64,000 bases of DNA from Holophagales bacterium (GCA_016716705.1 JADJVF010000013.1:60101-124100), one strand, 5' to 3'; counted from the first letter of the stretch, positions 2,099 through 64,000 are shown. The notes: generated by a model not told the origin, from the letters alone. Numbers and translations: made by a program.

Positions 2099-2108
2099 CG
2101 GTTCCGCC

Positions 2109-19979: not shown

Positions 19980-20743
19980 CCGGCGCCGAAGCGGAAGCCG
20001 CGCGTCCCTCGGACAGCCTGCTCGTCCGCCTCGGGAACGTCGTGTTCCGCGTCCGCGACGGGCTCTTCCCGGCGGTGCTCGTCCTCCTCTTCGTCCTCAC
20101 GAAGCCCGAGTGGCCCGGCAACGACCAGCGGCTCGACGACATCCTCGACGTCGTCGGGGTGCTCGTGGCGATGCTGGGGCAGGCCCTTCGCGTCGCGGTG
20201 GTGGGGACGGTCTACGTCATCCGTGGCGGCCGGAACCGGAAGGTCTACGCGGAGGAGCTGGTGAGCGGGGGCTTCTTCGCCCACTGCCGCAATCCTCTCT
20301 ACGTCGGCAACCTGCTCGTCCTCCTCGGGCTCTTCGTCATCTGGAACGGCACGGTGGCCTATCTCGTGGGCGTGCCGTTCTTCCTCGTCGCCTACACCGC
20401 CATCGTCGCCGCCGAGGAGAACTTCCTGCGTGGAAAGTTCGGGGAGCCGTTCGACGAGTACTGCGCCCGGGTGCCGCGGTGGATCCCGAGGCTCCGCGGG
20501 CTCAGGGCCTCCCTCGCCGGGATGCGGTTCCACTGGCAGCGCGTCGTGATCAAGGAGTACGGAAGCACCGCGTCGTGGATGATCGCGGCGGCACTGCTGC
20601 TCCTCGCCGACTCGCTCGCCCACCAGACCTGGGACGCGCGACCCGTGTACCACGCCGCCTGCGTCGCGGTGCTTCCCGTCATCGCGGCCGCGTGGGGAAC
20701 GGCACGCTGGCTGAAGAAGACGAAGCGATTCCAGGACGACTGA
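19976..20743 (+). CDS. integral-membrane methyltransferase, ICMT/PEMT (isoprenylcysteine carboxyl methyltransferase) family
   Basis: The 255-aa polytopic protein has the family motif HCRNPLYVGNLLVLLG and EENFLRGKFGEPFDEY. A TTG start overlaps the cmoA stop by 4 bp. Confidence 0.65.
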   Translation: MTGAEAEAARPSDSLLVRLGNVVFRVRDGLFPAVLVLLFVLTKPEWPGNDQRLDDILDVVGVLVAMLGQALRVAVVGTVYVIRGGRNRKVYAEELVSGGFFAHCRNPLYVGNLLVLLGLFVIWNGTVAYLVGVPFFLVAYTAIVAAEENFLRGKFGEPFDEYCARVPRWIPRLRGLRASLAGMRFHWQRVVIKEYGSTASWMIAAALLLLADSLAHQTWDARPVYHAACVAVLPVIAAAWGTARWLKKTKRFQDD

Positions 20744-28677: not shown

Positions 28678-29595
28678 ATGCTGGAAACACGCAAAGGCGA
28701 CCGCCCCGGGACGGGAAACGAAGCCTCCGCGTTCCGCGCCGCGCGACGCCCTGGAGGCTTCCGCCGGGTTCGCCGGGCGGCCGCGCTCGCCGTGGCCCTG
28801 GCGCTCGGGAATCCGGCCGCTGCCGAAGACGCGGAGGCCGGGGACAACGGAGCTCCCCGGCGCAGCGCCTTCACCTTCGTTGGCGCGGAGCTGGCCCGCT
28901 GGGGTTCCGACTCCGTGGCTCTCGTGAAGGCGCCCGCCTCGTGGGATGCGACGGACTGGGAGCGGTTCGGGCTCCTCGGCGCCGGCCTGGGCGGGCTCTT
29001 CCTCGTGGACGAGTCGGTCTACCGGTACGTCGAGGACCACCGGACCGAGGCCGGAGACCGGTTCGCCAGGGCCGTGACCCCGTTCGGGCAGGAGTACGCC
29101 TTCGGTCTCTCGGTCGGACTCCTCGCCGGGGGTCTCGTCTTCTCGGCTCCCGGGACCCGGGACACCGGTCGCGACGCCCTCGAGGCGTCGATCCTCAGCT
29201 TCGTGATCGCGAATCTCGTCCTGAAGCCGGTCATCGGGCGCCAGCGGCCCTACGTCTCGAACGGAGAGACCGTCTTCGACCCGTTCTCCCACGACCCGTC
29301 CTTTCCCTCGGGGCACACGACGGAGGCCTTCGCGGTCGCTTCGGTGATCGCGATGCGCAGCGAAGGCTGGGTCGTTCCGACCCTCGCCTATGCGACGGCG
29401 TCCCTCGTGGCGGTCTCGCGCGTCGAACAGAGCCACCACTTCACGAGCGACGTCTTCGCGGGCGCGGTCCTCGGGATCACCGTCGGCCGGTTCGTCGTGT
29501 CCCGCCACCGGCCGGTTCCCGACGGCCCGCCGCCGGCGACACGCGTCACGCTCGTCGCCATCCCCCACGGCCTTGCCGTCCACGTGTCGTGGTGA
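28678..29595 (+). CDS. PAP2-superfamily phosphatase (phosphatidic acid phosphatase type 2 / haloperoxidase fold), secreted
   Basis: All three PAP2 motifs are present: KPVIGRQRP, FPSGHTT, SRVEQSHHFTSDV. The N-terminus has a signal peptide. Confidence 0.7.
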   Translation: MLETRKGDRPGTGNEASAFRAARRPGGFRRVRRAAALAVALALGNPAAAEDAEAGDNGAPRRSAFTFVGAELARWGSDSVALVKAPASWDATDWERFGLLGAGLGGLFLVDESVYRYVEDHRTEAGDRFARAVTPFGQEYAFGLSVGLLAGGLVFSAPGTRDTGRDALEASILSFVIANLVLKPVIGRQRPYVSNGETVFDPFSHDPSFPSGHTTEAFAVASVIAMRSEGWVVPTLAYATASLVAVSRVEQSHHFTSDVFAGAVLGITVGRFVVSRHRPVPDGPPPATRVTLVAIPHGLAVHVSW

Positions 29596-39721: not shown

Positions 39722-39832
39722 TCGTGCGTCTCCTGTGCCTGAGAAGGACGGGAGGATCGTACTCGACGGGAGCCGGACTAGAATCCGCCCCGCCCGTCCG
39801 GGCGAAACGAGATCCGAAGAGGTGCCTCCGAC

Positions 39833-41001
39833 ATGAAAGTCCACGAGTACCAGGCGAAGGAGATCCTCCGTCGCTACGGTGTCCCGACCCCGACGGGGCA
39901 CGTCACCGACAGCCCGGAGGAAGCCCGTCAGATCGCGAAGGACCTGGGCGGCCGGGCCGTCGTGAAGGCCCAGATCCACGCCGGCGGGCGTGGCAAGGGG
40001 GGCGGCGTCAAGCTCGCGAAGACCCCCGACGAGGCCTTCGAACACGCCAAGGCGATCATCGGCATGCAGCTCGTCACGCACCAGACCGGCCCCGAGGGGC
40101 GCAAGGTCAAGAAGGTGCTCGTCGAGGCGGCGGCCGACATCGCGCAGGAGCTCTACCTCGGGATCACGCTCGACCGGGCCATCGGCAAGCCGGTCCTCAT
40201 GGCGTCGAAGTTCGGCGGCATGGAGATCGAGGAGGTCGCCCACAAGGACCCGACGGCGATCCTGAAGGAGCCGTTCGACGCGATCGCCGGCCTCCAGCCC
40301 TTCCAGGCGCGCAAGGTCGCCTACGCGCTCGGGCTGACGGGGGAGACGCACAAGAAGGCGGTCCCCTTCCTCTCGCCCTCGCGAAGGCCTACGTCGAGAC
40401 GGACTGCTCGCTGGCCGAGATCAACCCGCTGATGATCACCGGCTCGGGCGACGTCGTGGCGCTCGACGCCAAGATGAACTTCGACGACAACGCCCTCTTC
40501 CGGCACCTCGACATCAAGGAGTACCGGGACCTCGACGAGGAGGACCCGCTCGAGGTCGAGGCGTCGAAGTTCAACCTCAACTACATCAAGCTCGACGGCA
40601 ACGTCGGCTGCATGGTGAACGGCGCGGGCCTGGCGATGTCGACGATGGACATCATCCAGTACGCCGGCGGGAGCCCCGCGAACTTCCTCGACGTGGGCGG
40701 CGGGGCCAACGAGGAGCAGGTCCGCAACGCGATGCGGATCATCCTCTCGGACCCGAACGTCAAGGGCGTCCTCATCAACATCTTCGGCGGCATCATGCGC
40801 TGCGACATCATCGCCAGCGGCGTCGTGAAGGCGGTGAAGGAGATCGGCTGCACCATCCCCGTCGTCGTCCGCCTCGAGGGGACGAACGTGGAGGAAGGCA
40901 AGACGATCCTGCGCGACTCCGGCCTCGCCGTCATCCCGGCCGACGGGATGAAGGACGCCGCGGAGAAGATCATCGCCGCGGTCGCGAAGGGGGGGAACTG
41001 A
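39833..41001 (+). CDS. sucC: succinyl-CoA synthetase beta subunit; interrupted by an apparent 1-bp deletion near 40370
   Basis: ATP-grasp N-terminus [20 protein letters not shown]..., then after the frameshift ...[20 protein letters not shown]..., [18 protein letters not shown] and [10 protein letters not shown]. Adding one C restores [13 protein letters not shown]. Confidence 0.9.
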
Positions 41002-42067: not shown

Positions 42068-44908
42068 ATGTCCGGGCCGGCGGAGAAGAAACGGAGCCCG
42101 ACGGGGGGCGGCGGCGGCGTGTCTGCGGGCGAGCACAGCGACCCGACGGTGCCGCTGCCGTCCTCTGGGTCGGACACGCCGGACACGGACACCGAAGACA
42201 CCCTTCCCGGGCAGGCCGTTCCAGCCCGCGCCGGCAGACCCGACGTCCTGATTGCCGGCTACCGGATCCTCCGCGTGATCGGCGAGGGGGGGATGGGGAC
42301 GGTCTACGAAGCGGAGCAGGAGCGGCCGCGCCGGATCGTCGCCCTCAAGATGATCAAGCCAGGCCTGGCCACCGCCGCCCTGCTCAGGAGGTTCGAGCAG
42401 GAGGCGCACGCGCTGGGGCGGCTCCGCCACCCGGGGATCGCGCAGATCTACGAGGCCGGGATGGCGGACGCGGGGCACGGCCCCCAGCCGTACTTCGCGA
42501 TGGAGTTCGTGACGGGGCGCCCCCTCGACCAGTACGTGACGGAGAGGAATCCCGGCGTCCGCGAGCGGCTCGACCTCGTCGCCCGCATCTGCGACGCCGT
42601 GCACCACGCCCACCAGAAGGGGATCATCCACCGCGACCTGAAGCCCGGGAACATCCTCGTCGAGGATTCGGGCCAGCCCCGGGTCCTCGACTTCGGCCTG
42701 GCGCGCGTCACCGACTCGGACATCCAGGCCACGATGCAGACCGACGTCGGCCAGATCGTCGGAACGCTCCCGTACATGAGTCCCGAGCAGGTCCTGGGAG
42801 ACCCGCTCGCGCTCGACACGCGCAGCGACGTCTACGCGCTCGGGGTCCTCCTCTACCTCGTCCTGGCGGGCCACCTGCCGTACGACCTCAAGAAGGCGCA
42901 CCTGGCCGAGTGCATTCGTGTCATCCGCGAGGTGGACCCGAGCCCGCTCGGCACGGTGAGCCGGGAGTTCCGCGGCGACGTCGAGACGATTGCCGCCCGG
43001 GCGCTCGAGAAGGAGAAGGAGCGGCGTTACCAGTCGGCCGCGGAGCTCGGCTCGGACCTGCGCCGCCACCTCTCCCACGAGCCGATCGTGGCGCGCCCCG
43101 CGAGCGCGGCGTACCAGCTCGGCAAGTTCGCGCGGCGCAACCGGACCCTCGTGGCCGGGGCGGCCGCCACCGTCCTCGCGCTCGTCGCCGGGGTCGGCGT
43201 CAGCTCGTGGCAGGCGGTCCGGGCTCGGCGGGCCGAGGGGCTCGCCACCTCGCGACTCGCCCAGACGCAGGAGGCGCGCGCCGGGGGGGCCCCGGGGGGG
43301 GGGGGGCGGGGGGGGGGGGGGGGGGGGGGGGGGGAGGGGGGGGGGGGGGGGAGGGGGGGGGGGGGGGGGAGGGGGCGGGAGGGGGGCGGGGGGGGGGGGG
43401 GGGGGCGCGAGGCGGTGAACGCCTTCCTCAAGGAGATGCTCTCGTCGGTCGACCCGTCGGAGATGAAGGGGAAGGACGTGACCGTCCGGCGGGTGCTCGA
43501 CGAGGCGGCTGGAAAGGTCGGAGGCGGCTCGCTCCGGGAGCAGCCCGAGGTCGAGGCCTCCGTCCGGACCACGCTGGGGAAGACCTACCAGGCCCTCGGC
43601 CTCCTCGCCGAGGCGGAGCCCCACCTGAGGCAGGCCCTCGAGATACGCAAGCGCGTCCTCGGCCCCGAGCACCCCGACGTGGCCGCCAGCCTGAACGACC
43701 TCGCCTCGCTCCTCCACGACCGAGGGAAGCGGGCGGAGGCCGAGCCGCTCTACCGGGAGGCGCTCCGGATCCGGAAGAAGGCCCTCGGCCCCGGACACCT
43801 CGACACGTCCGCCACACTGAACGACCTCGGCCTCCTGCTGAAGCAGCAGGGCGACCTGGACGGGGCCGAGGCGATGTACCGCGAGTCGCTCGCGATCAAG
43901 CGGAGGAGCCTCGGCGAGGCCCACGGGGACCTGGCGCAGGCGATCAACAACATGGCGCAGCTCCTCCAGGCCCGGGGGACCTGAAGGGAGCCGAGACGCT
44001 CCACCGCGAGGCGCTCGCCATGCGCCGCACCGTCTTCGGCCCGGAGCACCCCGACGTCCTCGCCAGCCTGAACAACCTCGGCGCGAACCTTTTCGCGCAG
44101 GGGGACGTCGCGGGGGCCGAGGCGCTGGCCCGTGAGGTGCTCGCGGTGAGGCGGAGGACGCTCGACGAGAACCATCCGGACCTCGCCATGGCCCTCAACA
44201 ACCTCGGGGCGTACCTGCGGGTCGAGGGCAAGCTGGCGGAGGCCGAGCCGCTCCAGCGCGAGGCGCTCGCGATCTGGCGGAAGGCGCTCGGCAACGAGCA
44301 CCCCGACGTGGCGAGCGCGGCGAGCAACCTCGCGTTCGTCCTGCACGAGAAGGGGGACCCGGCAGGGGCCGAGGTTCTCCAGCGCGAGGCTCTGGCGATC
44401 CGCGTCAAGGTCTACGGCGAGGGAGCCTCCAGGTCGCCCGGACCCTGGGCCCCCTCGGCCCCATCCTCCTCGACGAGGGCAAGCTCGAGGAGGCCGAGAC
44501 GCTGCTCCGCAGGGCGCTCGAGATCCGCGTCGAGAAGCTCCCGCCCCGCCACGTCGACACGGCCGTCGCGCAGGCCGACCTGGCCCGGGCGCTGAACGCC
44601 CGGGGCAAGTTCGACGAGGCCCGGGCGCTGGCCGCGGAAGCCCTCTCCATCCGCGAGGAGAAGCTGCCCGCGGGCCACTGGACGCGCTTCGAGGCGCAGA
44701 GCCTCCTCGGCGAGGCGCTCGCCGGGCAGGGGAAGCTCGCCGAGGCCGAGGCGCTCCTCCTCCCCGCGTACGAAGGCCTGAGGGCGAGCGCGGCGGTCTC
44801 GCCGTGGAAGAAGAGGGCCGCGCGCGAGCGGATCGTGCGGCTCTACGAGGCGTGGGGCCGCCCGGAGGCGGCAGCGGCCTGGCGGGCGAAGGAGACGGCG
44901 CCTCTCTG
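42068..44908 (+). CDS. Ser/Thr protein kinase with a single TM segment and a C-terminal TPR array; it contains a poly-G tract and two further frameshifts
   Basis: Kinase motifs VALKMI, HRDLKPGNILV, DFGLAR, GTLPYMSPE; then the TM helix TLVAGAAATVLALVAGVGV; then at least 6 TPR units of the Leu-N-Asn-Leu-Ala type (ASLNDLASLL, ATLNDLGLLL, AQAINNMAQLL, ASLNNLGANL, AMALNNLGAYL, ASAASNLAFVL). The 1-bp deletions are near 43980 (a G5 run) and near 44430. Confidence 0.75.
43283..43407. repeat. ~125-bp nearly pure poly-G tract inside the kinase gene (probable sequencing or assembly artefact)
   Basis: Consecutive G runs interrupted by single C/A bases. As translated it would encode an implausible ~40-residue poly-Gly made almost entirely of GGG codons. 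Confidence 0.7.
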
Positions 44909-50741: not shown

Positions 50742-51341
50742 TCACTCGAGGGAGAAGCCGCGATCGAGGCAGGCGAGGGCTTCCTCGCCGAGGCGGGCGA
50801 GGTCCTCCTTGCCGTCCGTGCTGAACCAGTGCCGCATGGTGGCGCGGATGACGCCGATCGCCGCGCCCGCGAAGACGCGGGCCCGAAGCTCCGACGCGTG
50901 GCCGGGGCCGGCGCGTTCCCGGAATGCGCGGGACATCGCGGATTCCCAGTCCCTGTCGATCTCGCGCTCCCGGGCGAGGAGCGCGGGGGAGGTCTGGATC
51001 AGCTTCTGCTGGGCCACGAGCTGGGCCCGGTTCGCCATGTACTCGCGGGCGAAGGCGTTCGCGGTGCGGCGCAGGGTCGCCACGGGCCTCTCGTCCGGCG
51101 GAGCGCTCACGAGAAACTCCACGAAACGGTCCAGCCGTTCCTTCCGGTGCGGGAAGACGAGGGCCTCCTTGTTCAGGAAGTAGCGGAAGAACGTCCGCCG
51201 GCTCACCCCGGCTGCCTCGCAGATCTCGTCGATCGTGGTGGCCTCGAACCCCTTCTGGTGAAAGAAGCGGTTGCCGATCTCCAGCAGTGCGCGCCGGGTG
51301 GCCTCCTTTTTCTTCTCACGCAGGGGCCTTGGCGTTTTCAC
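50742..51341 (-). CDS. TetR/AcrR-family transcriptional regulator, divergent from the pfa-like cluster
   Basis: 199 aa with an N-terminal HTH (ATTIDEICEAAGVSRRTFFRYFLNKEAL) and a helical ligand-binding domain. Confidence 0.8.
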   Translation of the reverse strand: MKTPRPLREKKKEATRRALLEIGNRFFHQKGFEATTIDEICEAAGVSRRTFFRYFLNKEALVFPHRKERLDRFVEFLVSAPPDERPVATLRRTANAFAREYMANRAQLVAQQKLIQTSPALLAREREIDRDWESAMSRAFRERAGPGHASELRARVFAGAAIGVIRATMRHWFSTDGKEDLARLGEEALACLDRGFSLE

Positions 51342-51395
51342 AGGGGGAAGGATATAACTGCGCCCAAGTGCAAAACGCCACTCAGTGCCATTTTA
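51338..51395 (+). promoter_or_regulatory. putative sigma70-like promoter (TTGGCG-18-TATAAC) with an overlapping 23-bp imperfect palindrome (AAAACGCCACTCAGTGCCATTTT, 51373-51395), a candidate TetR operator in the tetR/pfaD divergent region
   Basis: The palindrome is symmetric at 18 of 23 positions and is centred on CACTCAGTG. It sits in a locally AT-rich 70-bp intergenic region between divergent genes. Confidence 0.35.
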
Positions 51396-51411
51396 TCGAG
51401 GCTACCGGGTC

Positions 51412-53034
51412 ATGACCCTTCCCGCCTCTCCGAACCGCTGGCGGCCTGACGGACGCCCGCCGGCCTTCACGCCGACCGAGATCGGGAGAGCACTCGAGGA
51501 GGTCCGCTCCACGGCGCACGTCGTCCGCGAGGACGACGGCCGGATCGGTCTCGGTCTCGGAGGTGAGCTGGTTTCGTCGGGTGGGAGCGGCGGGGCTCCC
51601 GGGACCTTCGCTCACCTGGCTTCGTTGCCACCCACCTACCCGGAGTGGCTCGGTGACCGGACCTTCTCCGAGACGCACGGAACTCGTTTCCCCTACGTCA
51701 CGGGCTCGATGGCGAACGGGATCGCCTCGGTGCGGCTCGTCTCCGAGATGGCGCGGGCCGGCTTTCTCGGATTCTTCGGGGCGGCGGGCCTCTCGCCGGG
51801 CCGCGTCGAGGGGGCGCTGGACGAGCTGCGGCGCGAGCTGGGCGATGCGGGCCTTCCCTGGGGCGCGAACCTGATCCACAGCCCGAACGAGCCGGCGCTC
51901 GAGGAGGCCGTGGCCGATCTCTACCTCCGCCGGGGTGTCGCGCGCGTGGAGGCCTCGGCCTACATGGCGCTGACGCCCTCCGTCGTCCGATACGCGGCGA
52001 CGGGCCTGACGACCGACCCCACCGGGAGGACCCGGCGGAAGAACCACCTCTTCGCGAAGATCTCGCGCGAGGAAGTGGCGATTCGCTTCCTGGAGCCCCC
52101 GCCGGCGGAGATCCTCCGGACGCTGGTCGAGCGCGGCCAGCTGACGGCGGCGGAGGCGCGCCTCGCCGAAGCGCTGCCGCTGGCGGAAGACCTCACCGCC
52201 GAGGCCGACTCCGGCGGCCACACCGACAACCGGCCGCTGACCGCTCTCCTCCCCGCGATCCTGCGCCTCCGCGACCGGGTCGCCGCCGAGCGCGGCTACC
52301 GGCAGGCGGTGCGCGTGGGCGCGGGCGGCGGCCTCGGAACGCCCTCGTCGGTGGCGGCGGCGTTCGCCCTCGGCGCGTCGTACGTCGTGACCGGCTCGGT
52401 GAACCAGGCCTGCGTCGAGAGCGGCCTCCACGAGAGCGGCCGGGCGCTGCTCGCCGAGGCGGGGATCGCCGACGTGATCATGGCGCCCGCGGCCGACATG
52501 TTCGAGCTGGGCGTCACGGTGCAGGTGCTGCGCCGGGGGACGATGTTCGCCGTCCGGGCGAAGAAGCTCTACGAGCTCTACCGCTCCTGGCCGTCCCTCG
52601 AGAGCATCCCGGCCGCCGAGAGGGAGAAGGTCGAGACGCAGCTCCTCCGGGCGACCTTCGCGGAGGCGTGGGAGTCGACGCGCGCCTTCTGGGCCGCCCG
52701 CGACCCGCGCGAGGTGGCGAGGGCCGAAGCCGACCCGAAGCACCTCATGGCGCTCGTCTTCCGCTCGTACCTCGGCCTCTCGAGCCGCTGGGCCATCGCG
52801 GGCGAGCCGGACCGCGGCACCGACTTCCAGATCTGGTGCGGGCCGGCGATGGGCGCGTTCAATTCGTGGGTGCGCGGCAGCTTCCTGGAGAAGCCCGACG
52901 CCCGGACCGCCGTCCAGGTCGCCCGCAACCTGATGGAGGGCGCCGCCGCGGTGACGCGCGCGCAGCAGCTCCGCGCCTCGGGCCTCGCCGTCCCTCCCTC
53001 CGCCTTCGACTTCCGCCCCCGTCCTCTCGCCTGA
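51412..53034 (+). CDS. pfaD: PfaD-family trans-acting enoyl reductase (FMN-dependent, nitronate-monooxygenase-like) of a PUFA-synthase-type cluster
   Basis: 540 aa, matching the TIGR02814-like PfaD pattern (…FPYVTGSMANGIASVRLVSEMARAGFLGFFGAAGL…, EASAYMALTPSVVRYAATGL, GGGLGTPSSVAAAFALGASYVVTGSVNQ). It lies immediately upstream of the KS-AT-ACP megasynthase. Confidence 0.8.
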   Translation: MTLPASPNRWRPDGRPPAFTPTEIGRALEEVRSTAHVVREDDGRIGLGLGGELVSSGGSGGAPGTFAHLASLPPTYPEWLGDRTFSETHGTRFPYVTGSMANGIASVRLVSEMARAGFLGFFGAAGLSPGRVEGALDELRRELGDAGLPWGANLIHSPNEPALEEAVADLYLRRGVARVEASAYMALTPSVVRYAATGLTTDPTGRTRRKNHLFAKISREEVAIRFLEPPPAEILRTLVERGQLTAAEARLAEALPLAEDLTAEADSGGHTDNRPLTALLPAILRLRDRVAAERGYRQAVRVGAGGGLGTPSSVAAAFALGASYVVTGSVNQACVESGLHESGRALLAEAGIADVIMAPAADMFELGVTVQVLRRGTMFAVRAKKLYELYRSWPSLESIPAAEREKVETQLLRATFAEAWESTRAFWAARDPREVARAEADPKHLMALVFRSYLGLSSRWAIAGEPDRGTDFQIWCGPAMGAFNSWVRGSFLEKPDARTAVQVARNLMEGAAAVTRAQQLRASGLAVPPSAFDFRPRPLA

Positions 53035-53080
53035 CCCTTCTTCCAGCTGCTTACCGGATTCGTCCGATGCCGAGGCCAGA

Positions 53081-56000
53081 ATGACCCACGATCCCGCCCG
53101 GAACCTCCCGCCCATCGCCGTCGTCGGCGTGAGTGCCCTCTTCCCCGGCTCCACGGATGCCACCGGTTTCTGGAAGGACATCCTCGCCGGAACGGACCTG
53201 ATCCGCGACGTCCCCCCGAGCCACTGGCTCGTCGAGGACTACTTCGATCCCGACCCCTCCGCGCCGGACAAGACTTACGCAAAGCGGGGCGCGTTCCTCG
53301 ACCCGGTCGACTTCGACGCCCTCGGCTGGGGCGTTCCCCCGTCGACGATCCCGGCGACGGACACGGCGCAGCTCCTCGCCCTCGTCGTCGCGCAGAAGGT
53401 CCTCCAGGACGCCCTTCGCGAGCAGTTCGAGACGGCGGACCGCTCCCGCGTCTCGGTGATCCTCGGCGTCACGAGCGCCCAGGAGCTCCTCTCCACGATG
53501 ACGAGCCGGCTCCAGCGGCCGGTCTGGGTGAAGGCGCTCCGCGAGTCGGGCCTGCCCGAGGCCGAGGTGACGGCGATCTGTGACCGGATCGCGAACCACT
53601 ACGTGCCGTGGCAGGAGTCGACCTTCCCGGGCCTCCTCGGGAACGTCGTCGCGGGGCGGATCGCGAACCGCCTGAACCTGGGCGGCACGAACTGCGTCAC
53701 CGACGCGGCCTGCGCTTCGACTCTCAGCGCGCTCTCGATGGCCGTCGCCGAGCTGCAGCTGGGGCACAGCGACCTCGTCATCTCGGGCGGCGTCGACACG
53801 CTGAACGACATCTTCATGTTCATGTGCTTCTCGAAGACGCCGGCGCTCTCGCCGACCGGCGACTGCCGGCCGTTCAGCGACAAGGCCGACGGCACGATGC
53901 TGGGCGAGGGGCTCGGGATGGTCGCCCTCAAGCGCCTCGCCGACGCCGAGCGCGACGGCGACCGGATCTACGCCGTGGTGCGCGGCGTTGGCTCCTCCTC
54001 GGACGGCCGCTCCAAGAGCGTCTACGCGCCGGTGCCGGCGGGGCAGGCGAAGGCGCTCGACCGCGCCTACGAGCTGGCGGGGTACGGCCCCGGGACCGTC
54101 GAGCTGGTGGAAGCGCACGGGACCGGGACGAAGGCCGGCGACGTCGCCGAGTTCGAAGGGCTCCGGATGGTCTTCGACGGCGCGGGGCGCGACGACCGCC
54201 AGTGGTGCGCGCTCGGCTCGGTGAAGAGCCAGATCGGCCACGCGAAGGCGGCGGCGGGCGCGGCGGGCCTCTTCAAGGCGATCATGGCGCTCCACCACGG
54301 CGTGCTTCCGCCGACGATCAAGGTCGACGCCCCGAACCCGAAGCTCGGCCTCGAAGAGAGCCCCTTCTACCTGAACACGAAGGCGCGGCCCTGGGTGCGC
54401 GATGCTCGTCACCCGCGCCGGGCCTCGGTGAGCGCGTTCGGCTTCGGCGGCTCCAACTTCCACGTGGCCCTCGAGGAGTACCAGGGACCGGCGCCCCGCG
54501 CACAGCGGCTCCGGACCCTCGCGAGGGAGCTGGTCGTCGTCTGCGGGGACGACCCGGCTCAGGTCGCGGCGAAGGCGCGGGAGCTCGCGCGACAGGCGAC
54601 GGGGGCCGCGGGCACCGCTGGAACAGCAGGGGCAGCGGAGGTCCGCCGGCTTGCGCGGCTCGCCCACGAGAGCCAGGAGTCCTATCGCCCAGAAGCGCCC
54701 GCGCGCCTCGCCGTTCTCGCCTCGGACGTGAAGAGCCTGGAGACGAAGCTCGTCGAGGCCGCGAAACGGATCGAAGCCGCGCCCGGCGAAGCCTTCGCGC
54801 TGCCGGACGGCTCCGCCTACGGGGTGGGACCGTGCGACGGCAAGCTCGCCTTCCTCTTCCCGGGGCAGGGGAGCCAGTACGTCGGGATGGGCGCCGGCCT
54901 CGCCATGGAGTTCCGCGCCGCGCTCGGGGTCTGGGACCGCGCGGCGAACCTCGACCTCGAGCCGGGAGGCTCGCTTCACGACACGGTCTTCCCGCGGCCC
55001 GGGTTCGGCGAGGAGAAGCAGAAGAGCGACCTCGCGAGGCTCACGGCGACGCATTGGGCGCAGCCGGCGATCGCCTGCGTCTCGCTGTCGCAGCTGGCGC
55101 TGCTGGAAGCGATCGGGATTCGGGCCGATCTGACCGGGGGGCACAGCCTCGGCGAGGTCGTGGCCCTTCGCGCGGCGGGCGTCCTTTCGAGCGACGCGGA
55201 CCTCCTCACCGTGGCGCGGCGCCGGGGAGAGCTGATGGCCGAGGCGGCCGCGATTCCGGGCGCCATGACGGCCCTGAGCCTGCCGGTCGGAAAGGTTCGC
55301 GACCTCCTCGCCCGCCTCTCACCACGCGTCGTCGTCGCCAACCACAACGGCCCGACGCAGGTCGTCGTCTCCGGGGCCACCGCCGACGTCGCCGACCTCG
55401 AGGCGAAGCTCTCCGCCGAGGGGATCTCGTTCCAGCGGCTCCCCGTCGCCACCGCGTTCCATTCCGGGCTCGTCTCCGGTGCCTGCGAGCCGTTCGCCCG
55501 TTTCCTTTCGGACGTCCCGTTCGAGGCCCCGCGACTGCCCGTCTACTCGAACGCCCTCGCCGCCCCGCACGGCAGCGACCCCGACGTCCTGCGCTCCGCC
55601 CTCGCGAGCCAGATCGCGAGCGAGGTCCGCTTCGTCGAGATGGTCGAGGCGATGTACGCCGCCGGGGCCCGCACGTTCCTCGAGGTCGGCCCCGGCTCGG
55701 TCCTCACGGGACTGCTGGGACGCATCCTCGACGGGCGGCCCCACCTCGCCGTGAATCTCGACCGGAAGGGGAGGGACGGCGTCGAGTCGCTCCAGCTCGC
55801 GCTGGCGCGGCTCGTGGCCGCGGGCGTGGAGATGTCGCCCGCGAAGCTCTTCTCCGATTCGCGCCTGCCGCAACAGGAAGCGGCATCTACGGCCTCGAAG
55901 CTCGCCGTCTCGATCAACGGCAGCAACCACGGAAAGCTCTATCCCCCGCCGGGCGGCGCCGCGTCGCTCCCCGCCCCGAATCCGCCGCGACCGGTGCCGC

Positions 56001-59000
56001 CCGTGCTGCAGGCCGCGCCCGCTCCGGCGATCCCCGCTGCCGCCGTCCCCCGGGAGGACCCGTTGAAGCACGAGACCGCGACGCCCGCCGCCCCGCCTCC
56101 GTCCCCGGCCGCCACTGCCCGTCCCGTGGTCCTGGCCGGTTCGCCCTCGGAGTGGGTCCTGGCCTTCCAGGAGACCCAGCGGCAGACCGCCGAGGCGCAC
56201 GCCGTCTACCAGCGGGCGATGGCCGAGAGCCACTCCTCGTTCCTGCGCGTCGCGGAGTCGGGAATGCTCGGCCTCACCGCGATGGTGACGGGCCAGCCCC
56301 TGTCCGTTCCCGGGCCGCAGCTGGCAAGGGAGATCGCGCCGCGATATGCCCAGGAGCCGCCAGCGCCCGCGTGGGCCCCGGCTCCGGTCCAGGTGCAGTT
56401 TCCGGCTTTCGTGCCTGTCGCTGCCGCGGTCGAGGCGCCGAAGCCGTTTGCGGCGCCGTTCGTGCCGCCCGTCGCGTCATCGATCGTCGAGCAGCCCGTT
56501 CCCGCCGCGCAGTCCGTCGCGACAGTCCCCGCTCCGGTCGCGAAGCGCACCGACAGCGACCTCCAGGCCCTGATGCTGTCCGTCGTGGCCGAGAAGACGG
56601 GCTACCCGGCCGACATGCTGAACCTCGCGATGGACCTCGAGGGCGACCTCGGGATCGACTCGATCAAGAGGGTCGAGATTCTCTCGGCGGTGGCCGATCA
56701 GGCGCCGGAGCTGCGCTCGGTGGACATGGGGCACATGGGGTCGCTGCGCACCCTCGGCGCCATCGTCGAGTACATGAAGAGCCTCGGCCCGCAGGACGCG
56801 GCGGATTTCGCGACGAGGCGGACGGCCGTTTCCGACGTCGACCTGCAGGCGTTGATGCTGGCGGTCGTCGCGGAGAAGACGGGCTATCCGGCCGACATGC
56901 TCAACCTCGGGATGGACCTCGAGGGAGACCTCGGGATCGACTCGATCAAGCGGGTCGAGATCCTGTCGGCGGTGGCCGACCAGGCGCCGGAGCTGCGCTC
57001 GGTCGACATGGGGCACATGGGATCGCTGCGCACCCTCGGCGCGATCGTCGAGTACATGAAGGGCCTCGGGCAGCCGGGGCTGGCCGCTGCCGCGGCGACG
57101 CCCGTTGCGGTCCCGGCCGCGTCCGCGCCCGGTGTCTTCGGCGGGCCTGGTCAATGTGGCGGAAGCGACGAAAGCCGCACCGCGTCTCGGCCGTTTCGTC
57201 CTGGAGAGGATCGCGGCCCCGACCACCGGTCTCGCCCAGCCCGGGCTCCTGGGCGGCGGCGAGGTCTGGGTGACGGGCTCGGACGAGCTGAACGAGCCGC
57301 TGGCCGCCGAGCTGCGCGCCCGCGGCGTGAATGCGAAGGCCACCTCGAGCCTTCCCTCCGGAGCGACGGCCTGCATCTACCTCGGCGGCCTGCGGGACGT
57401 GGCGGACGTCGACGAGGCGATCGCCGTCAACCGCGAGGCGTTCGCCCTCGCGCGCACCCTGGCGGTCCGGCTCGAGAAGGAACGCGGCCTCTTCGTGACG
57501 GTGCAGGACACGGGCGCCGCCTTCGGAATGGCCCCGATGGACGCGCGCCGCGCGTGGCTCGCGGGCCTCCCGGCCCTCGTGAAGACCGCCGGCCAGGAGT
57601 GGCCGCACGCCTCCCTGAAGGCCATCGACCTCGAACGGGGCGGCCGCGGGCCGGAAGCGCTCGCGAAGGCTCTGGCGACCGAGCTGCTCGAAGGGGGCGG
57701 CGAGGCGGAGGTGGCGCTCCCCGCCTCCGGAGGCCGGTTCACGCTGCGCAGCGTGGAGAGGTCCGTCGCGAAGGGAGAGCCGGTGATCGTTCGCGGGGAC
57801 GTCGTCGTCGTCTCGGGCGGCGCCCGGGGCGTCACGGCGGCCTGCATCGAGGAGTGGGCGCGCGAGAGCCGCGCGCGGTTCGTCCTCCTCGGCCGGACGC
57901 CCCTCGCGCCGGAGCCCGCCTGCTGCGCGGGCGTCGCGGACGAGCCGGGCCTGAAGAAGGCGCTCCTCGCCGAGGCCCGGAGCCAGGGTCAGAGCCCCGC
58001 TCCGGCCGAGCTGGGGGCCCGGGTCCACGAGGTGCTCTCCAATCGCGAGATCCGCCGGACCCTCGCGGCGATCCAGGCCGCGGGGGGCGAGGTGCGGTAC
58101 GAGGCGGTGAGCGTCGAAGACGCCGGGGCGCTGGGCGGCGTCCTCGCCCGCGTTCGCTCCGAGTGGGGCCCCGTCGCCGGGCTGGTCCACGCCGCGGGCG
58201 TCCTGGCCGACCGGAGGATCTCCGAGAAGACGGACGAACAGTTCGACCGCGTCTTCGACACGAAGGTGAAGGGGCTTCTCGCGCTCCTCGCCGCGACCGC
58301 GGACGACCCGCTGAAGCTCCTCTGCGTCTTCTCGTCGGTTTCGGCCCGCTGCGGCAACAACGGCCAGGCCGACTACGCCATGGCGAACGAGGTCCTCGCG
58401 AAGGTCGCCTGGGCCGAGTCCCGTCGCCGGCCGGAGATGCTCGTGAAGTCGTTCGGGTGGGGACCCTGGGAGGGCGGGATGGTGACGCCCCAGCTGAAGG
58501 CGCGGTTCGCGTCGCTCGGCGTCCCAATGATCCCGCTCGCCGTCGGGGCCCGCATGTTCGTCGACGAGGTCCGCGGCGCGCAGACCGCGGAAGTGGAGCT
58601 CGTCCTCGGGGGAGAACCGAAGGCGGAAGCGCTCCTCTTCGCGGGCGCCGAGGCCCGGGTCCAGGAGCTCGAGCTGAAGGTCCAGCGGGGGAGCCACGGC
58701 TACCTCGAAGGGCACGCGATCAAGGGAATTCCCGTCATCCCCGTCGTCCTCGCGGCCGAGTGGCTCTCGCGTGCGGCCCGCTCATTCCGGCCCGGCCTGG
58801 TCCTCGCCGCCCTGCACGACATCAAGGTCCTCAAGGGAATAAGGCTCGGAGGGTTCGACAACGGGGGCGACCGGTTCGTGATCGAGGCGCGTCCGATTCC
58901 GAGCAGCCGGGGCGCCCAGCTGCAGCTGGACGTCCGCGGCTCGGGCGGGACCCACCACTACAGCGCCCGGGCCGAGCTGCTCTCGGAGCTCGACGCCCAG

Positions 59001-59462
59001 GGCCCGGCGCTGCCCCAGCTCGAGCTCGGGGAGTGGTCCGGGGAGCCGATCTACGGCGACCTCCTGTTTCACCGCGGCGCCTTCGAGCTGATCGAGCAGG
59101 TCGACGGGATCTCCGACCACGGGGCCGGAGGACGCGTCCGGGGCGTCGAGCGCGCGGGCTGGCCGAACGGCTCGGCGAATCCCTGGCAGCTCGACGTGGC
59201 GGCTCTCGACGGAGGGCTGCAGGTCGCGGTCCTCTACGCGCAGCGGATGCTCGGGCGGGACAACCTGCCGACGACGATCGGAGAGCTGCGGCCGTACAGG
59301 TCGTCTCCCGCGCCGGGCGTCGTCAACGTGGCGGCCTACCGCCGCAAGGTGGGGAGCCACGGGGTCACGACCGACATCCACTTCACCGACGAGAAGGGCG
59401 TGCGGCTGGCGGCTCTCCTCGGAGTCGAGAACCACGCGTTGCCGGCCGGCAGCCAGGCCTGA
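53081..59462 (+). CDS. pfaA: PfaA-type multidomain iterative PKS/FAS with domain order KS - MAT - ACP - ACP - KR - DH(PKS-type); one apparent frameshift near 57140
   Basis: KS: DAACASTLSAL (Cys), EAHGTGT, GHAK. AT: FLFPGQGSQY, GHSLGE, AFHS (malonyl-type). Two near-identical ACPs: LEGDLGIDSIKRVEILS twice. KR: VVVVSGGARGVTAACI...YAMANEVL. PS-DH: LEGHAIKGIPVIPVV. The 6.4-kb reading frame is continuous except for one shift. Confidence 0.85.
56558..57069 (+). repeat. tandem direct repeat of two ~231-bp units (281-bp period) encoding two near-identical ACP domains
   Basis: Unit 1 (56558-56788) and unit 2 (56839-57069) are identical at most nucleotide positions and differ mainly at synonymous sites. 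Confidence 0.8.
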
Positions 59463-59466
59463 CCTC

Positions 59467-62400
59467 GTGGCCTTCGCCCCGATCGCCATCGTCGGGCGGT
59501 CCTGCGTCCTGCCGGGCGCCCTGGACCCGTCCGCGCTCTGGGAGCTCGTCGCCGCGGGGCGCGACCTCGTCGGCCCGGCCCCGCAAGGACGCTGGGGGCT
59601 CGACCCGGACCAGATCCTCCGTCCGTCCGGCCCGGCCCCGGACGGCTCCTGGTCCGACCGGGGCGGCTACGTTTCCGGGTTCGAGACGATCTGGGACCCG
59701 TCGGGGTTCGGGGTTGGCGAGAAGGAGCTCGAAGGGCTCGACCAACTGGTGTACTGGGTCCTCCACACGGCCCGGGAGGCGCTGAGAGACTCGGGGGACG
59801 AGAAGTCCGGGCTCGCGCACGCGACCGCCACGGGCGCGGCCGCCCGGCCACGGACAGGGGCCGTCTTTGGCAACCTCGGTTTCCCTTCCGAGGGGATGGC
59901 CGCTTTCGCGCGGAGCGTCTGGACCGGAAACGGCACCGGCGGAGGGGGTGCCGCCGTCGACCCGCGGAACCGGTTCATGAGCGGCGGGACCGCCGCTCTC
60001 CTGCGCCGCGCGCTGGGGCTGGGAGCGGGCGCCTTCTGCCTCGACGCCGCCTGCGCGAGCTCGCTCTACGCCATCAAGCTCGCCTGCGACCGCCTCCACG
60101 ACGGCGAGGCCGACGTGATGCTCGCGGGCGCCGTGCAGCGCGCCGACGACCTCTTCCTGCACGTCGGGTTCACCGCTCTCGGCGCCCTGAGCCGGAGCGG
60201 CCGCTCGCGCCCCTTTCACAGGGGAGCCGACGGCCTCGTCCCCGCGGAGGGCGCCGCCTTCGTCGTCCTGAAGCGGCTCGGCGACGCCCGGCGGAACGGC
60301 GACACGATCCACGGCGTCATCCGGGGCGTGGGCCTGTCGAACGACGGGCGCGGCAAGGGGCTCCTCGCCCCGTCCGAGGAAGGGCAGGAGCGGGCCATTC
60401 GGGCCGCGTACGCGGAGGCGGGATTCGGTCCGGAACGGGTCTCCCTGATCGAGGCGCACGCCACGGGGACGCCGATCGGAGATGGCGCGGAGATCCGCAG
60501 CACGGGCGCGGTCTTCGCGGGGCTCTCCGGCGTGCCGCTCGGGTCGCTCAAGTCGAACCTGGGGCACCTGATCACGGCCGCCGGCGTGGCCGGCCTCCTG
60601 AAGGTGCTCGGGGCGATGAAGGCAGGAATGCGGCCGCCCACGCTCCACGCGGGGGAACCGCTCGACGCGCTCGCAGGCTCGCCCTTCCGGCTCGTCGAAC
60701 GGCTCGAGCCCTGGACGTGCGAAGGGCCGAGGGTCGCCGCGGTCTCGGCGTTCGGCTTCGGCGGGAACAACGCCCACCTGATCGTCTCGGAGGACGACCC
60801 GGAGCTGGAGCGAACGAGCGGTGCACGGGATGCGGCGACCTCGGCCGCGGCAGCCGCGGCAGCCGGGAGTTCGAAGCCTCCCGTCCTCGCCGTCGTCGGC
60901 CTCGGCTGCGCCGTGGCGAACGCCCCGAATCGTCCGCGATTCGCCGAGGTCCTCTTCTCGGACGCGAGCCTTCTCGACGCGCGAGGCGAAGGCCGCTTCG
61001 GTCCCGTCGAGCTCGACCTCGAGGGGCTTCGCTTTCCACCGAAGGACCTCGGCCAGACGCTGCCACAGCAGCTCGCCACGCTCCGGGCCGCCTGCGAGGC
61101 GCTCGCCGGGAGCAGTGCGCTCCCGCGCGAGCGGACCGGGATCTTCGTCGGAATGGAGCCCGACCCCGAGGTGGCCCGGTGGGGTGCGCGCTGGCGCCTG
61201 GCCCGCACGGCCCGCGAAGCCGGGGCCTCGACGGAGTGGCTGCAGGAAGCGCGCGACGCGGTCGTCCCCGTCCTCGAAGCGGCGTCCGTCGTCGGCACGA
61301 TGCCGAACATCCCGGCGAACCGGCTCAGCTCCCAGCTCGACCTGGGGGGGCGCGCGTTCACGGTCCAGGCGGGAGAGGCGTCGGGAACGGTGGCCCTCTC
61401 TCTCGCGATGCGGGCCCTCTGCAGCGGCGAGCTGGACGCGGCGCTCGTCGGCGCCGTCGACCTCTCCTGCGAGAGCGTCCACAGGAGCGCGATCGAGGCC
61501 CTTGCCGGCGAGGGGACGGCAAGCCCGGCCGGAGACGCCGCGGTGGTCCTCGTCGTCAAGCGACTGGAGGATGCCGAGCGGGACGGCGACCGCGTCTACG
61601 CGCTGATCGAAGAGATCGAAGGGGCCAAGCAACGAGAAGAAGGTCACGAGATAGAGGCGCGAGGGGAGCCGGTAAAGCTTCTCGACCTCGTCGGCGAGAC
61701 ACCGGTGAGCCTCGTGTCGCGCTTCGGGCACTCCTACGCCGCGTCGGACCTCGTCCACGTCGCCGTCGCTGCCCTCAGCCTCCACCACCGCAGGCTTCCC
61801 GGGGGACGGCCCTGGCTGCCGTCCAGCCCCTCGGCCCGCGTGGCGCGCGTCGGGGTGGCGGGTGGCCCGCGGATCAAGCTAACGGAGGCCCAGGGTCACC
61901 CGCGCTGCGCCGAGGACGACGCCCCGCGGCTGCGCTGCTACTCCGGACCCGATCGCGCGGCTGTGATCGACGCGCTTCACAGCGGCCGCGAGGGCCTCGG
62001 CGAGGAAGATCCTGTCCGCCTGGTCCTCGTGGCGACGGAAGGCTCCTTCGAAAGCGTGCGGGTGCGGGCCCTGTCGCATCTCGAGACGGGCGCTCCCGCC
62101 GGTCCCGGAATCCACTTCCGCGAGCGGCCTGTGAACGGCGACGTCGCCTTCGTCTTTGCCGGCGCCGGCGCCGCCTATCGCGGCATGGGACGCGACCTCC
62201 TCGAGCGGCTCCCGGGGCTCGCAGTCTCCCTCGCTCGCCGCAGCCGCAGGCTCCCACGCGCGCTCGCCTGGTCCTTCGAAGACGACGCCCGCGAGCCGGC
62301 GGTCCTCGAGCAGCTCTGGGGGGCCTCGGCTCTCTGCCAGCTCCACGCCGAGCTGACGCGGGGGTTCCTGGGGCTCGAGCCCCACGCCTGGATGGGGTAC

Positions 62401-64000
62401 TCCTCCGGCGAGACGAACGCCCTCCTGGCTTCGGGGACCTGGGCCGACGCCGACGCGCTCGTGGCGGAGAGCGAGAGCTCGGGGCTCTTCACGCGGGACC
62501 TCGGCGGGAGCTTCGCGGCGGTCGAACGCGCGTGGGGCGTTCCGGTCCGCTGGGCGTCCTGGACGGTCCTCGCTCCCGTCGCCGACGTGACGGCCGCCCT
62601 CGCGAGCGAGGAGCGGGTTCACCTCGCGATCGTCCACGGCGACGCGGACTGCGTCATCTCCGGAGACGAAGGCGGATGCGCCCGGGTCGTCGAGGCGCTG
62701 GGTAGAGGCCGATGCCTGCGCCTCGGCTACCCGCTCGCGGTCCACGTTCCCGAGCTCGACGCGGTTCGGGAGGAGTGGCTATCGCTGCACCGCCGGCCGA
62801 CGACGCCGCCCCTCCGGCCGGGTCGCGGCCGCCCGCCCGCTTCTACACGAACGCCACGGCCGTCCGCTACGTGCCGACGTCCGAGAGCTGCGCGCAGGCG
62901 ATCCTCGGCCAGGCGAACCGGACGCTCGACCTGCGCCCGACCGTCCTCGCGGCCTGGGAGGACGGCGTCCGCGTCTTCGTCGAGCACGGGCCGCAGGCGG
63001 CGTGCGGCCGCTGGATCCGCGCGATCCTCGGCGAGCGCGAGGCGCTCGTCGTCAGCCTCGACCGGAAGGGGCAGGGCCTCGAGGCGACCCTCGACGCCGT
63101 CGCGGCGCTCGTCGCCGCGGGCGTGCCGATGCGCGCCGGGGCTCTCGACGAGCTCGACGCCCTGCTGCGGGCGGAACGGCCCTCCCCTCGGAGCGGCCGG
63201 AGCCTCGCCTTCCCGGCGCACTTTCCCGAGGTGAAGCTCCTGCCCGTCCCTTTGCCGATCGTCGCGCCGGACCCGGCGGGCGCGCGCGTCATGGCCCCGG
63301 CTCCGGTCCTGCCGCCGGTCCTCGACGAAGACTGGAACGTCCGGTCGCGCGATCCCGTCGTGCCGATCGCTCCGCCCGCGCCTTCCGCACCGGTCGCGTC
63401 CCCCGTCCTTCAGGGCTTGCTCGACCACGTCGCCCAGCTCTCGAGAATCCAGCAGGACTACGTTCTGGCGCAGCAGGCTCTGCACGAGCGGTTCCTCTCT
63501 GGGCGCGGCGCGGCGATGGAGACGTTCCTCCACGCAGCGCGCCGTGCGGGAACGACGGAAAGTGTTCCGGCGTTCCCGGAGACCCCGATGATTTCGACGG
63601 CTCCGACGCCTGTCGAGAAACCTCATCGCAGCGGAGGTCCCGTCGGTCCCCGATTCGACCGCGGCCAGCTCGAGATCCACGCCGGAGGCCGGATCTCGGA
63701 GCTCTTCGGTCGGGATTTCGCGGCGCAGGACGGCTACGCACGCCAGGTCCGGATGCCGCTCCCTCCGCTCCTCCTCGCCGACCGGGTCGTCGGTCTCGCG
63801 GCCGAGCCGGCGAGCATGGGGAAGGGGACGATCTGGACCGAGACCGACGTGACGTGGGATTCCTGGTACCTGCACCAGGGCCACATGCCGGCGGGCGTGA
63901 TGATCGAGGCGGGCCAGGCCGACCTGATGCTCATCTCGTACCTCGGCGTCGACCTCCTGAACAGGGGAGAGCGGGTCTACCGGCTCCTCGGCTGCGAGCT
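59467..64000 (+). CDS. pfaC: PfaC/pfa3-type protein with domain order KS - CLF (chain-length factor) - AT - FabA-like DH...; truncated by the window end, with one apparent frameshift near 62790
   Basis: KS: DAACASSLYAIKLACD (Cys), EAHATGTP, KSNLGHL. A second KS-like domain lacks the active Cys (TVQAGEASGTVALSLAMRAL). AT: GYSSGE (GxSxG). After the frameshift the protein continues into a FabA-type dehydratase (…GTIWTETDVTWDSWYLHQGHMPAGVMIEAGQADLMLISYLGVD…). A GTG start lies 5 nt after the pfaA stop. Confidence 0.8.

Follow-up and report, generated by a model that had tools for sequence, protein, structure and literature searches.

Identification and extent of the gene

In the 64,000-nt stretch of DNA analysed here (the window), the region from position 59467 to the end was assigned to pfa3, the third subunit gene of a polyunsaturated fatty acid (PUFA) synthase of the polyketide synthase (PKS)-type, anaerobic pathway. 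With high confidence, this region represents the 5′ 52% (1511 of approximately 2900 codons) of an acidobacterial pfa3, preceded in the same cluster by pfa1 and pfa2, and the break in its reading frame is most probably an assembly error. All positions are given in window coordinates, and L002, L005 and similar labels denote homologous loci fetched from relatives (48 in total).

The start of pfa3 was placed at a GTG codon at 59467 on the plus strand, leaving a gap of 4 nt after the pfa2 stop codon (59460–59462); in tblastn, residue 1 of the L002 orthologue was aligned to the same position. The first part of the gene (59467..62808, plus strand), defined by its open reading frame (ORF) and translation, encodes aa 1–1114 with a ketosynthase (KS2), a chain length factor (CLF) and the first two thirds of an acyltransferase (AT2). 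This part was 81.5% identical to aa 1–1127 of L002 Pfa3. The second part (62811..64000, plus strand), encoding aa 1116–1511, in which the rest of AT2 is followed by a Pro/Ala-rich linker and the beginning of a first FabA-like dehydratase (DH), yielded a stop-free translation open to the window end and 77% identity to aa 1119–1553 of L002 Pfa3. The corrected Pfa3 of 1511 aa used below consists of 59467–62808, one Pro (CCN) and 62811–63998.

Taken literally, the ORF 59467–63234 was translated normally up to ...VREEWLSLHRRPTTPP and then became degenerate and Arg/Pro/Ser-rich (RPRPS-type, after ...LHRRPTTPP) as far as a stop at 63234. This out-of-frame tail of approximately 140 codons (62811..63234, plus strand) is not a real protein, as judged from its translation and from the coding signal, which lay in another frame. 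The frame one base earlier remained sensible (...RFYTNATAVRYVPTSESCAQAILGQ...FVEHGPQAACG...), with zero stops up to base 64000.

The same shift was seen in the GC content of third codon positions (GC3), plotted along the window, which has an overall GC content of 72%. Plus-strand coding was indicated without interruption between about 51.4 kb and the end of the window, with phase changes at 53.05, 57.1, 59.4 and 62.8 kb. Those at 53.05 and 59.4 kb are gene boundaries, while those at 57.1 and 62.8 kb are intragenic, the latter being a change from mod 0 to mod 2 at the pfa3 break.

The frameshift was localized to 62809..62812 (plus strand), where one base is missing from a run of C (GCCGCC-CCTCC in the window against GCCGCCTCCTCC in L002). 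With L002 as the tblastn query, aa 1–1127 were placed on 59467–62841 and aa 1119–1553 on 62811–63998, collinear and in different frames, with the switch between 62811 and 62841. Because a base was present at the gap column in all seven relatives of DNA alignment A1 and missing only in the window, and because KS2 through the C-terminal 1-acylglycerol-3-phosphate acyltransferase (AGPAT) formed one ORF (2713–3018 aa) in 13/13 complete relatives, the single-base gap is most probably an indel error of assembly, not a mutation. The original prediction, made from the window sequence, had implied a single open gene running off the contig, and this 1-nt frameshift had gone unnoticed. The gene does run off in the corrected frame, open from 62811 to 64000, whereas the literal ORF from 59467 ends at 63234.

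Domain architecture

KS2 (59479..60813, plus strand) was covered by the Pfam families ketoacyl-synt, Ketoacyl-synt_C and KAsynt_C_assoc over aa 5–449, with E-values of 3.7e-63 and 6.6e-36 and ketoacyl-synt matched in two stretches. Its Cys-His-His triad was found in the motifs DAACASS (aa 193, nt 60043), HATGT (aa 331, nt 60457) and NLGH (aa 364, nt 60556).

The CLF, a KS-like domain from aa 471 to about 813 (60877..61905, plus strand), was delimited by the second ketoacyl-synt stretch and by a phmmer alignment to Moritella PfaC (PDB 6riw; CLF residues 532–697). The motif QAGEASG (aa 634, nt 61366), with Glu at the position of the active-site Cys, stood opposite SAEENS of the CLF half and AACASS of the KS half of that protein. 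The window CLF is catalytically dead at the Cys position. Over KS2 and CLF together, the match to the KS-CLF of Moritella PfaC reached an E-value of 5e-94.

AT2, interrupted by the frameshift, occupied approximately 62131..63053 (plus strand). It was recognized by Pfam Acyl_transf_1 (aa 895–1105, 34.1 bits against a cut-off of 32.7), by NCBIfam pfaB_fam (aa 889–1184 of the corrected protein, E-value 2.2e-20, continuous across the junction) and by its alignment to PDB 9ry8.

The FabA-like DH began at about nt 63744 and continued to the window end, with LHQGHMP at nt 63870. Pfam FabA was matched over profile positions 2–46 only, with an E-value of 8.4e-5 that lies below the gathering score, the domain being cut by the window end; NCBIfam PRK05174 (FabA) matched aa 1427–1471 of the corrected Pfa3.

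The search for ketoacyl-synt, Acyl_transf_1 and FabA domains that had been proposed with the original prediction thus returned the order KS-CLF-AT-FabA DH (Pfam, NCBIfam, PDB). The active Cys was present in the first KS-like domain and absent from the second, as had been stated. The middle region was an acyltransferase in Pfam, NCBIfam and PDB alike, lying between the CLF and the FabA-like DH (Acyl_transf_1/pfaB_fam over aa 889–1196, FabA from aa 1427), and the DH expected after it was indeed found to begin downstream. The extent originally given for the AT, about 62100–62780, was right as to the presence of an AT with GYSSGE there; its real 3′ limit is about 63053, and 62780 marks the point where the frame was lost.

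The missing half of the gene is predicted, from 13 complete orthologues of which seven are approximately 80% identical, to comprise DH-DH, a region resembling PKS dehydratases (PS-DH) and a C-terminal AGPAT of PlsC type. In three full-length orthologues, Pfam gave KS, CLF, Acyl_transf_1, three to four FabA stretches (E-values of about 1e-86 to 1e-90), weak PS-DH and a C-terminal PF01553. The AGPAT was identified by PF01553 and an EGTR motif in L002, L005 and L007, and by tblastn in 13/13 complete relatives. Domain-wise tblastn over the 48 loci gave the order KS-CLF-AT-FabA-(PS-DH)-AGPAT in all close relatives.

Two further features of the orthologues were observed. In L002 (10001–18703, aa ~2640–2730), L005 and L007, motif I of the AGPAT is NHQTGVE (HX4E in place of the canonical HX4D), and the EGTR motif is retained. 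Between DH3 and AGPAT, the same three loci share a conserved stretch of about 240 aa that contains FHGPAFQ (YGPxF-like) and LLDGATH, gives weak PS-DH matches and possibly corresponds to DH4 of Minicystis rosea.

Predicted function and product

From characterised homologues, a route from malonyl units to phospholipid can be proposed. Pfa2 would load malonyl units onto its two acyl carrier protein (ACP) domains and perform early elongation and ketoreduction, and Pfa1 would reduce selected enoyl intermediates. The KS2-CLF pair of Pfa3 would carry out late condensations and help to set chain length, while the FabA-like DHs would introduce cis, methylene-interrupted double bonds by dehydration and isomerisation. 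AT2 may then take the finished long acyl chain off the Pfa2 ACPs, in the manner of the terminal acyltransferase PfaB, and hand it towards AGPAT, which would esterify it to the sn-2 position of lysophosphatidic acid.

By a narrow balance of probability, an uncultured high-GC clade of Acidobacteriota makes long-chain PUFA with a synthase of Aetherobacter/Minicystis type, the AGPAT loading phospholipid directly and a TetR-family protein acting as a dedicated regulator. Such a finding would contradict the view that only terrestrial myxobacteria have the AGPAT fusion (PMC8436480), as well as the reported absence of pfa genes from Acidobacteria outside Acanthopleuribacteraceae (PMC8841776). Nothing further on PUFA synthases came from literature searches directed at Thermoanaerobaculia or at Acidobacteria as a whole.

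Several considerations weigh against the main reading of the region as pfa3 of a PUFA synthase, or against parts of it. PUFA production in the clade is a prediction from genes, and the window ORFs scanned with Pfam included no phosphopantetheinyl transferase gene (pfaE). The DH-DH-AGPAT part of the window gene is predicted from orthologues only; the AGPAT would fall approximately 4 kb past the window end. Against the TIGR02816 PfaB family, AT2 scored 72.9 bits, below the curated cut-off of 144.3, with profile positions 175–479 of 534 covered, because the N-terminal pseudo-KS of free-standing PfaB has no counterpart in the window gene. Finally, the product-linked residues of AT2 (Ala, Arg) are of neither the eicosapentaenoic acid (EPA) nor the docosahexaenoic acid (DHA) type, which makes the product unpredictable. 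Prediction of EPA, DHA or arachidonic acid (AA) from the residues described by Lofeudo et al. was therefore dropped, since Ala at the oxyanion position and Arg in the 'lid' fit no described class.

The last point also bears on the alternative that the gene is intact in vivo and the cluster makes another secondary lipid, such as an acyl chain of lesser length or unsaturation or an intermediate leading to olefins or specialised lipids. Products of this kind are suspected for many Type L and related pfa-like clusters. The fused pfaB/C gene is a feature of the Type L cluster of Shulse and Allen, the products of which are uncharacterised in that work, and no PUFA was shown in Streptomyces coelicolor (PMC3098273). 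The Sorangium version makes mainly linoleic acid (PMC8436480), and Pfa2 has only two ACPs. Set against this is the full set of enoyl reductase (ER), KS-CLF, PfaB-type AT, two FabA-type DH/isomerases and AGPAT (the second DH and the AGPAT as predicted from orthologues), which is the long-chain PUFA architecture of Aetherobacter and Minicystis. Moreover, AT2 separates the producers of EPA, DHA and AA from Sorangium (PMC8436480), and the Acidobacteria carrying pfaD-A-B/C contain 6–12% EPA (PMC8841776). A different lipid product is thus considered unlikely, though a modest chance is left to it.

The frame break and the quality of the surrounding sequence

At least nine frame breaks were counted in the 64 kb, approximately one per 7 kb, at least eight of them outside pfa3 and several in housekeeping genes. 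Because of these at least eight similar breaks in other genes of the window, the pfa3 break was judged an assembly artefact, and the scattered pattern is most likely long-read indel noise, not selective decay of the pfa genes.

In pfa2, the break lies at about 57125–57150, within the Ala/Pro linker that follows the second ACP. It could be bracketed only, as the linker is hypervariable and the relatives have no base-for-base alignment there. With L002 Pfa2 as query, tblastn placed aa 37–1427 in frame 2 (52949–57136) and aa 1422–2199 in frame 3 (57135–59462). Read literally, the ORF 53081–59785 continues through about 880 out-of-frame codons into pfa3; the frame of the real 3′ part of pfa2, with ketoreductase (KR) and PS-DH, ends at 59462.

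The succinate dehydrogenase gene sdhA (14929–16845) was split at about 15965, with FAD_binding_2 profile positions 3–302 and 307–414 in different frames. It was split again near 16700, where the true C-terminus (...RSYK followed by a stop) was found in the third frame, at about 16740–16845. An sdhA-sdhB fusion suggested by the ORF 15821–17638 was rejected on account of this C-terminus in the third frame, which implies another frameshift, with sdhB continuing to 17635.

Comparable breaks were found in three further genes. In sucC (succinyl-CoA synthetase beta, 39824–40998), ATP-grasp_2 and Ligase_CoA lay in different frames joined at about 40372. kdpB (65–2110, minus strand) was distributed over three frames (584–2110, 336–587 and 65–331; 682 aa in sum). 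A Ser/Thr kinase gene with tetratricopeptide repeats (TPRs; 42068–44900) had its TPRs in two further frames, with breaks at about 43973 and 44424, and its last piece had no start codon until 44835. The kdpA gene (2112–3818) was intact, a histidine kinase resembling KdpD and a response regulator resembling KdpE are encoded at 6356–8499, and a second kinase gene (21819–23536) may contain similar breaks at about 22700 and 23145.

If the frameshifts in pfa3 (62810) and pfa2 were genuine, the cluster would be a pseudogene cluster, or it would encode a truncated KS-CLF-AT′ protein with DH-DH-AGPAT lost or separately expressed. At face value, the sequence has the stop at 63234 in the upstream frame, and neither of the two large pfa genes is free of a break. 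Breaks of this kind were also present, however, in sdhA (at least two), sucC, kdpB (two) and the kinase-TPR gene, and a rate of about one per 7 kb, implausible for the genome of a living organism, is typical of indel noise in long reads. The pfa3 break also falls in a homopolymer, and the 396 codons after it are stop-free, high in GC3 and without a second lesion. Neither a start codon nor a ribosome-binding context was found for an independent DH-AGPAT gene, and the break sits within the AT fold, 3′ of the catalytic His. Genuine frameshifts are accordingly regarded as very unlikely. Programmed frameshifting or a split gene was rejected in view of the occurrence of breaks across unrelated genes and of the position of the pfa3 break inside the AT fold.

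Returning to the probable assembly error, selection on pfa3 was also considered. Relative to L002, the dN/dS ratio was 0.25 upstream and 0.37 downstream of the break, values that represent past purifying selection. Dating of the frameshift by dN/dS was dropped, as a very recent lesion is compatible with both values. Two reservations apply to this explanation: dN/dS taken over the whole divergence from L002 would miss a recent inactivation, and the artefact call rests on sequence comparison, not on reads. In practice, without correction of the frames, ORF-based annotation of the contig, including pfa2 and pfa3, will yield proteins that are truncated or split.

Nature of the AT2 domain

The best solved relative of AT2 was PfaB of Shewanella baltica (SbPfaB below; PDB 9ry8, E-value 3.5e-21), aligned continuously across the corrected junction. 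Weaker structure matches were obtained to the ATs of modular PKSs (about 1e-13) and to FabD (1.6e-7).

Three motifs were located in AT2: FAGAGAAY (aa 897, nt 62155), GYSSGE (aa 977, nt 62395–62412) and AVHVP (aa 1091, nt 62737). GYSSGE aligned to GYSMGE of SbPfaB, with Tyr and not His before the catalytic Ser. The catalytic His was found in an xAxH motif, with LAVHV (aa 1091–1095) opposite TAMHT of SbPfaB; the residues flanking it deviate from the gammaproteobacterial consensus [NT]A[IM]H[ST]. Ser1004 of AT2 stood opposite N482 of SbPfaB, the position of the malonate-binding Arg in malonyl transferases. FAGAGAAY was opposite YPGVGTVY, the PGQxQ oxyanion motif of malonyl-CoA:ACP transacylases (MATs) being replaced by AGAGA. 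The catalytic residues of the gene are intact, both the Cys-His-His of the KS and the Ser-His dyad, in GYSxG, of the AT.

According to Lofeudo et al. (PMC12895367), PfaB of bacteria acts as a terminal long-chain acyltransferase and determines which final product is made. PfaB moves chains longer than C16; a Ser-His dyad and an essential Tyr in GYSxG are present in it, and the malonate-binding Arg has no counterpart. All three of these sequence features were present in AT2 in the alignment to 9ry8. Since it has Tyr before Ser and no malonate-binding Arg, AT2 was read as not loading malonyl-CoA. It is a PfaB-like AT domain and not a PfaB protein.

That AT2 is a second MAT loading extender units, as its matches to the generic Acyl_transf_1 model and, weakly, to MdcH and FabD models might suggest, is scarcely credible given its GYSSG in place of GHSxG, its Ser where MATs have Arg (N482 in SbPfaB), its AGAGA instead of PGQxQ, a structural match far better to PfaB than to FabD (3.5e-21 against 1.6e-7), the essential role of the motif-II Tyr in the transfer of chains longer than C16 by PfaB proteins (PMC12895367), and the canonical MAT already present in Pfa2 (fabD model, 193 bits).

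Gene cluster and neighbouring genes

The genes pfa1, pfa2 and pfa3 all lie on the plus strand, with the ER gene first and gaps of 46 and 4 nt between them (Pfam and NCBIfam domains). pfa1 (51385..53034, plus strand) encodes a PfaD-type enoyl reductase, which scored 612 bits against TIGR02814 pfaD_fam (cut-off 449), matched Pfam NMO and FabD_helical_ins, and had 90% full-length identity to L002 Pfa1. pfa2 (53081..59462, plus strand), read in two frames, encodes KS-MAT-2xACP-KR-PS-DH according to its Pfam domains; its first part scored 1131.8 bits against TIGR02813 PfaA (cut-off 1010.1).

Two ACPs were counted in Pfa2, by GIDSI at 56651 and 56933, and likewise in L002; an assembly collapse of near-identical repeats is possible. 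PUFA synthases typically have five to nine ACPs (PMC12895367).

Directly upstream of pfa1 and divergent from it, a gene for a TetR-family regulator was found (50745..51317, minus strand; Pfam TetR_N, E-value 6.6e-15, and TetR_C_14). A TetR gene was present at the same position (about 1250–1890 in the coordinates of these loci) in L013 (96%), L007 (91%), L002 (88%) and L005 (87%), and upstream of pfa1 also in the distant L008 and L012 (46–50%); it was seen in all relatives with enough flank. This divergent TetR gene is a candidate for a regulator dedicated to the cluster. pfaE is probably unlinked to the cluster, as in myxobacteria and Acanthopleuribacteraceae.

Other lipid-related genes of the window were those for a PEMT-like phospholipid methyltransferase (20012–20740) and a PAP2 phosphatase (28777–29586).

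Relatives and host lineage

Among species-representative genomes, the closest homologues came from metagenome-assembled genomes (MAGs) of Holophagales, Thermoanaerobaculia or Acidobacteria, with 78–91% amino acid identity; at least ten species-level representatives fell into this close clade. Holophagales and Thermoanaerobaculia both belong to the phylum Acidobacteriota. Homologues from myxobacterial MAGs (Nannocystales, Polyangiales) were 46–53% identical, and those from Mycobacterium 41–42%. The assignment to the acidobacterial clade does not rest on the pfa genes alone, because the neighbouring aminopeptidase P gene shared 96% identity with its L002 counterpart.

No identical contig was found in the genome and metagenome scans, which returned relatives only, at up to about 91% amino acid identity, and exact-protein look-ups for the literal pfa3 ORF and Pfa1 gave no record.

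Some variation in architecture was observed among the 48 loci. L012 and L014 were without AT2 (Sorangium-like KS-CLF-DH-DH-PSDH-AGPAT). AT2 was present with no AGPAT segment in L015, L020 and L030–L036, two Mycobacterium genomes among them.

Comparison with known systems

The fused KS-CLF-AT-DH-DH(-AGPAT) protein is already described, is common in databases, and has been reported together with EPA in one acidobacterial family. With the present gene, the AGPAT-terminated PUFA synthase gains a modestly wider known host range that takes in an uncultured clade of Acidobacteriota. It is relevant to environmental sources of PUFA and to synthase mining for biotechnology, while the scientific gain is small.

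In Aetherobacter and Minicystis, Pfa1 is the ER, Pfa2 is KS1-AT1-ACPs-KR-DH1 and Pfa3 is KS2-CLF-AT2-DH2-DH3-[DH4]-AGPAT (PMC8436480, PMC6731297). In the published model, position 2 of 1-acylglycerol-3-phosphate is acylated with the completed chain (Gemperlein et al., PMC6731297; Pal et al., PMC8436480). Aetherobacter fasciculatus and Minicystis rosea share with the window the order pfa1(ER)-pfa2-pfa3 and the order within Pfa3, with AT2 between the CLF and the DHs, and the assignment to a pfa cluster in the original prediction is borne out by this layout of the flanking genes (NCBIfam scores above curated cut-offs). By published description, their Pfa3 ends in AGPAT, as do the orthologues of the window gene, which at the position of M. 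rosea DH4 have the weak PS-DH region of about 240 aa. The window differs in its acidobacterial host, in the two ACPs of Pfa2, in the NHQTGVE motif of the orthologue AGPAT and in an identity to myxobacterial MAGs of only 46–53%.

The likeness to myxobacterial pfa3 asserted in the original prediction holds for the Aetherobacter/Minicystis subtype, which has the AT, and not for Sorangium, nor is the host a myxobacterium. Pfa3 of Sorangium cellulosum (KS-CLF-DH-DH-AGPAT) belongs to the same cluster type and has the AGPAT terminus, but is without AT2, the domain linked to the ability to make EPA, DHA or AA (PMC8436480).

Within the same phylum, Acanthopleuribacter pedis and Sulfidibacter corallicola (Holophagae) carry pfaD-A-B/C with an unlinked pfaE and contain 12.2% and 6.2% EPA, respectively; no pfa genes were found in the other acidobacterial genomes examined in that study (PMC8841776). 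By published description, these species have the same three-gene layout with a fused pfaB/C gene. They are marine animal-associated isolates with 57–60% GC, whereas the window, at 72% GC, groups with MAGs of uncultured Holophagales/Thermoanaerobaculia.

The PfaB and PfaC proteins of the marine Gammaproteobacteria Shewanella and Moritella (9ry8, 6riw) share with the window gene the GYSxG motif with Tyr, the Ser-His dyad, the lack of Arg and the Cys-to-Glu replacement in the CLF. In these bacteria the AT resides on a separate PfaB behind its own pseudo-KS, the ER gene is last and AGPAT is lacking, whereas in the window the AT lies within PfaC and the ER gene is first. The window gene is of the pfaB/C fusion type and not a canonical gammaproteobacterial PfaC (KS-CLF-DH-DH, no AT).

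Proteins with KS-CLF-AT-DH-DH of about 2100–2200 aa are very common in the protein database, especially from Xanthomonadales, and are named 'PfaB family protein' by some sources. Those of Xanthomonadales/Lysobacterales (e.g., Tahibacter) and Mycobacterium have the same N-terminal four-domain order, with 50–60% identity. They are without AGPAT (no PF01553), in contrast to the orthologues of the window gene, which carry it.

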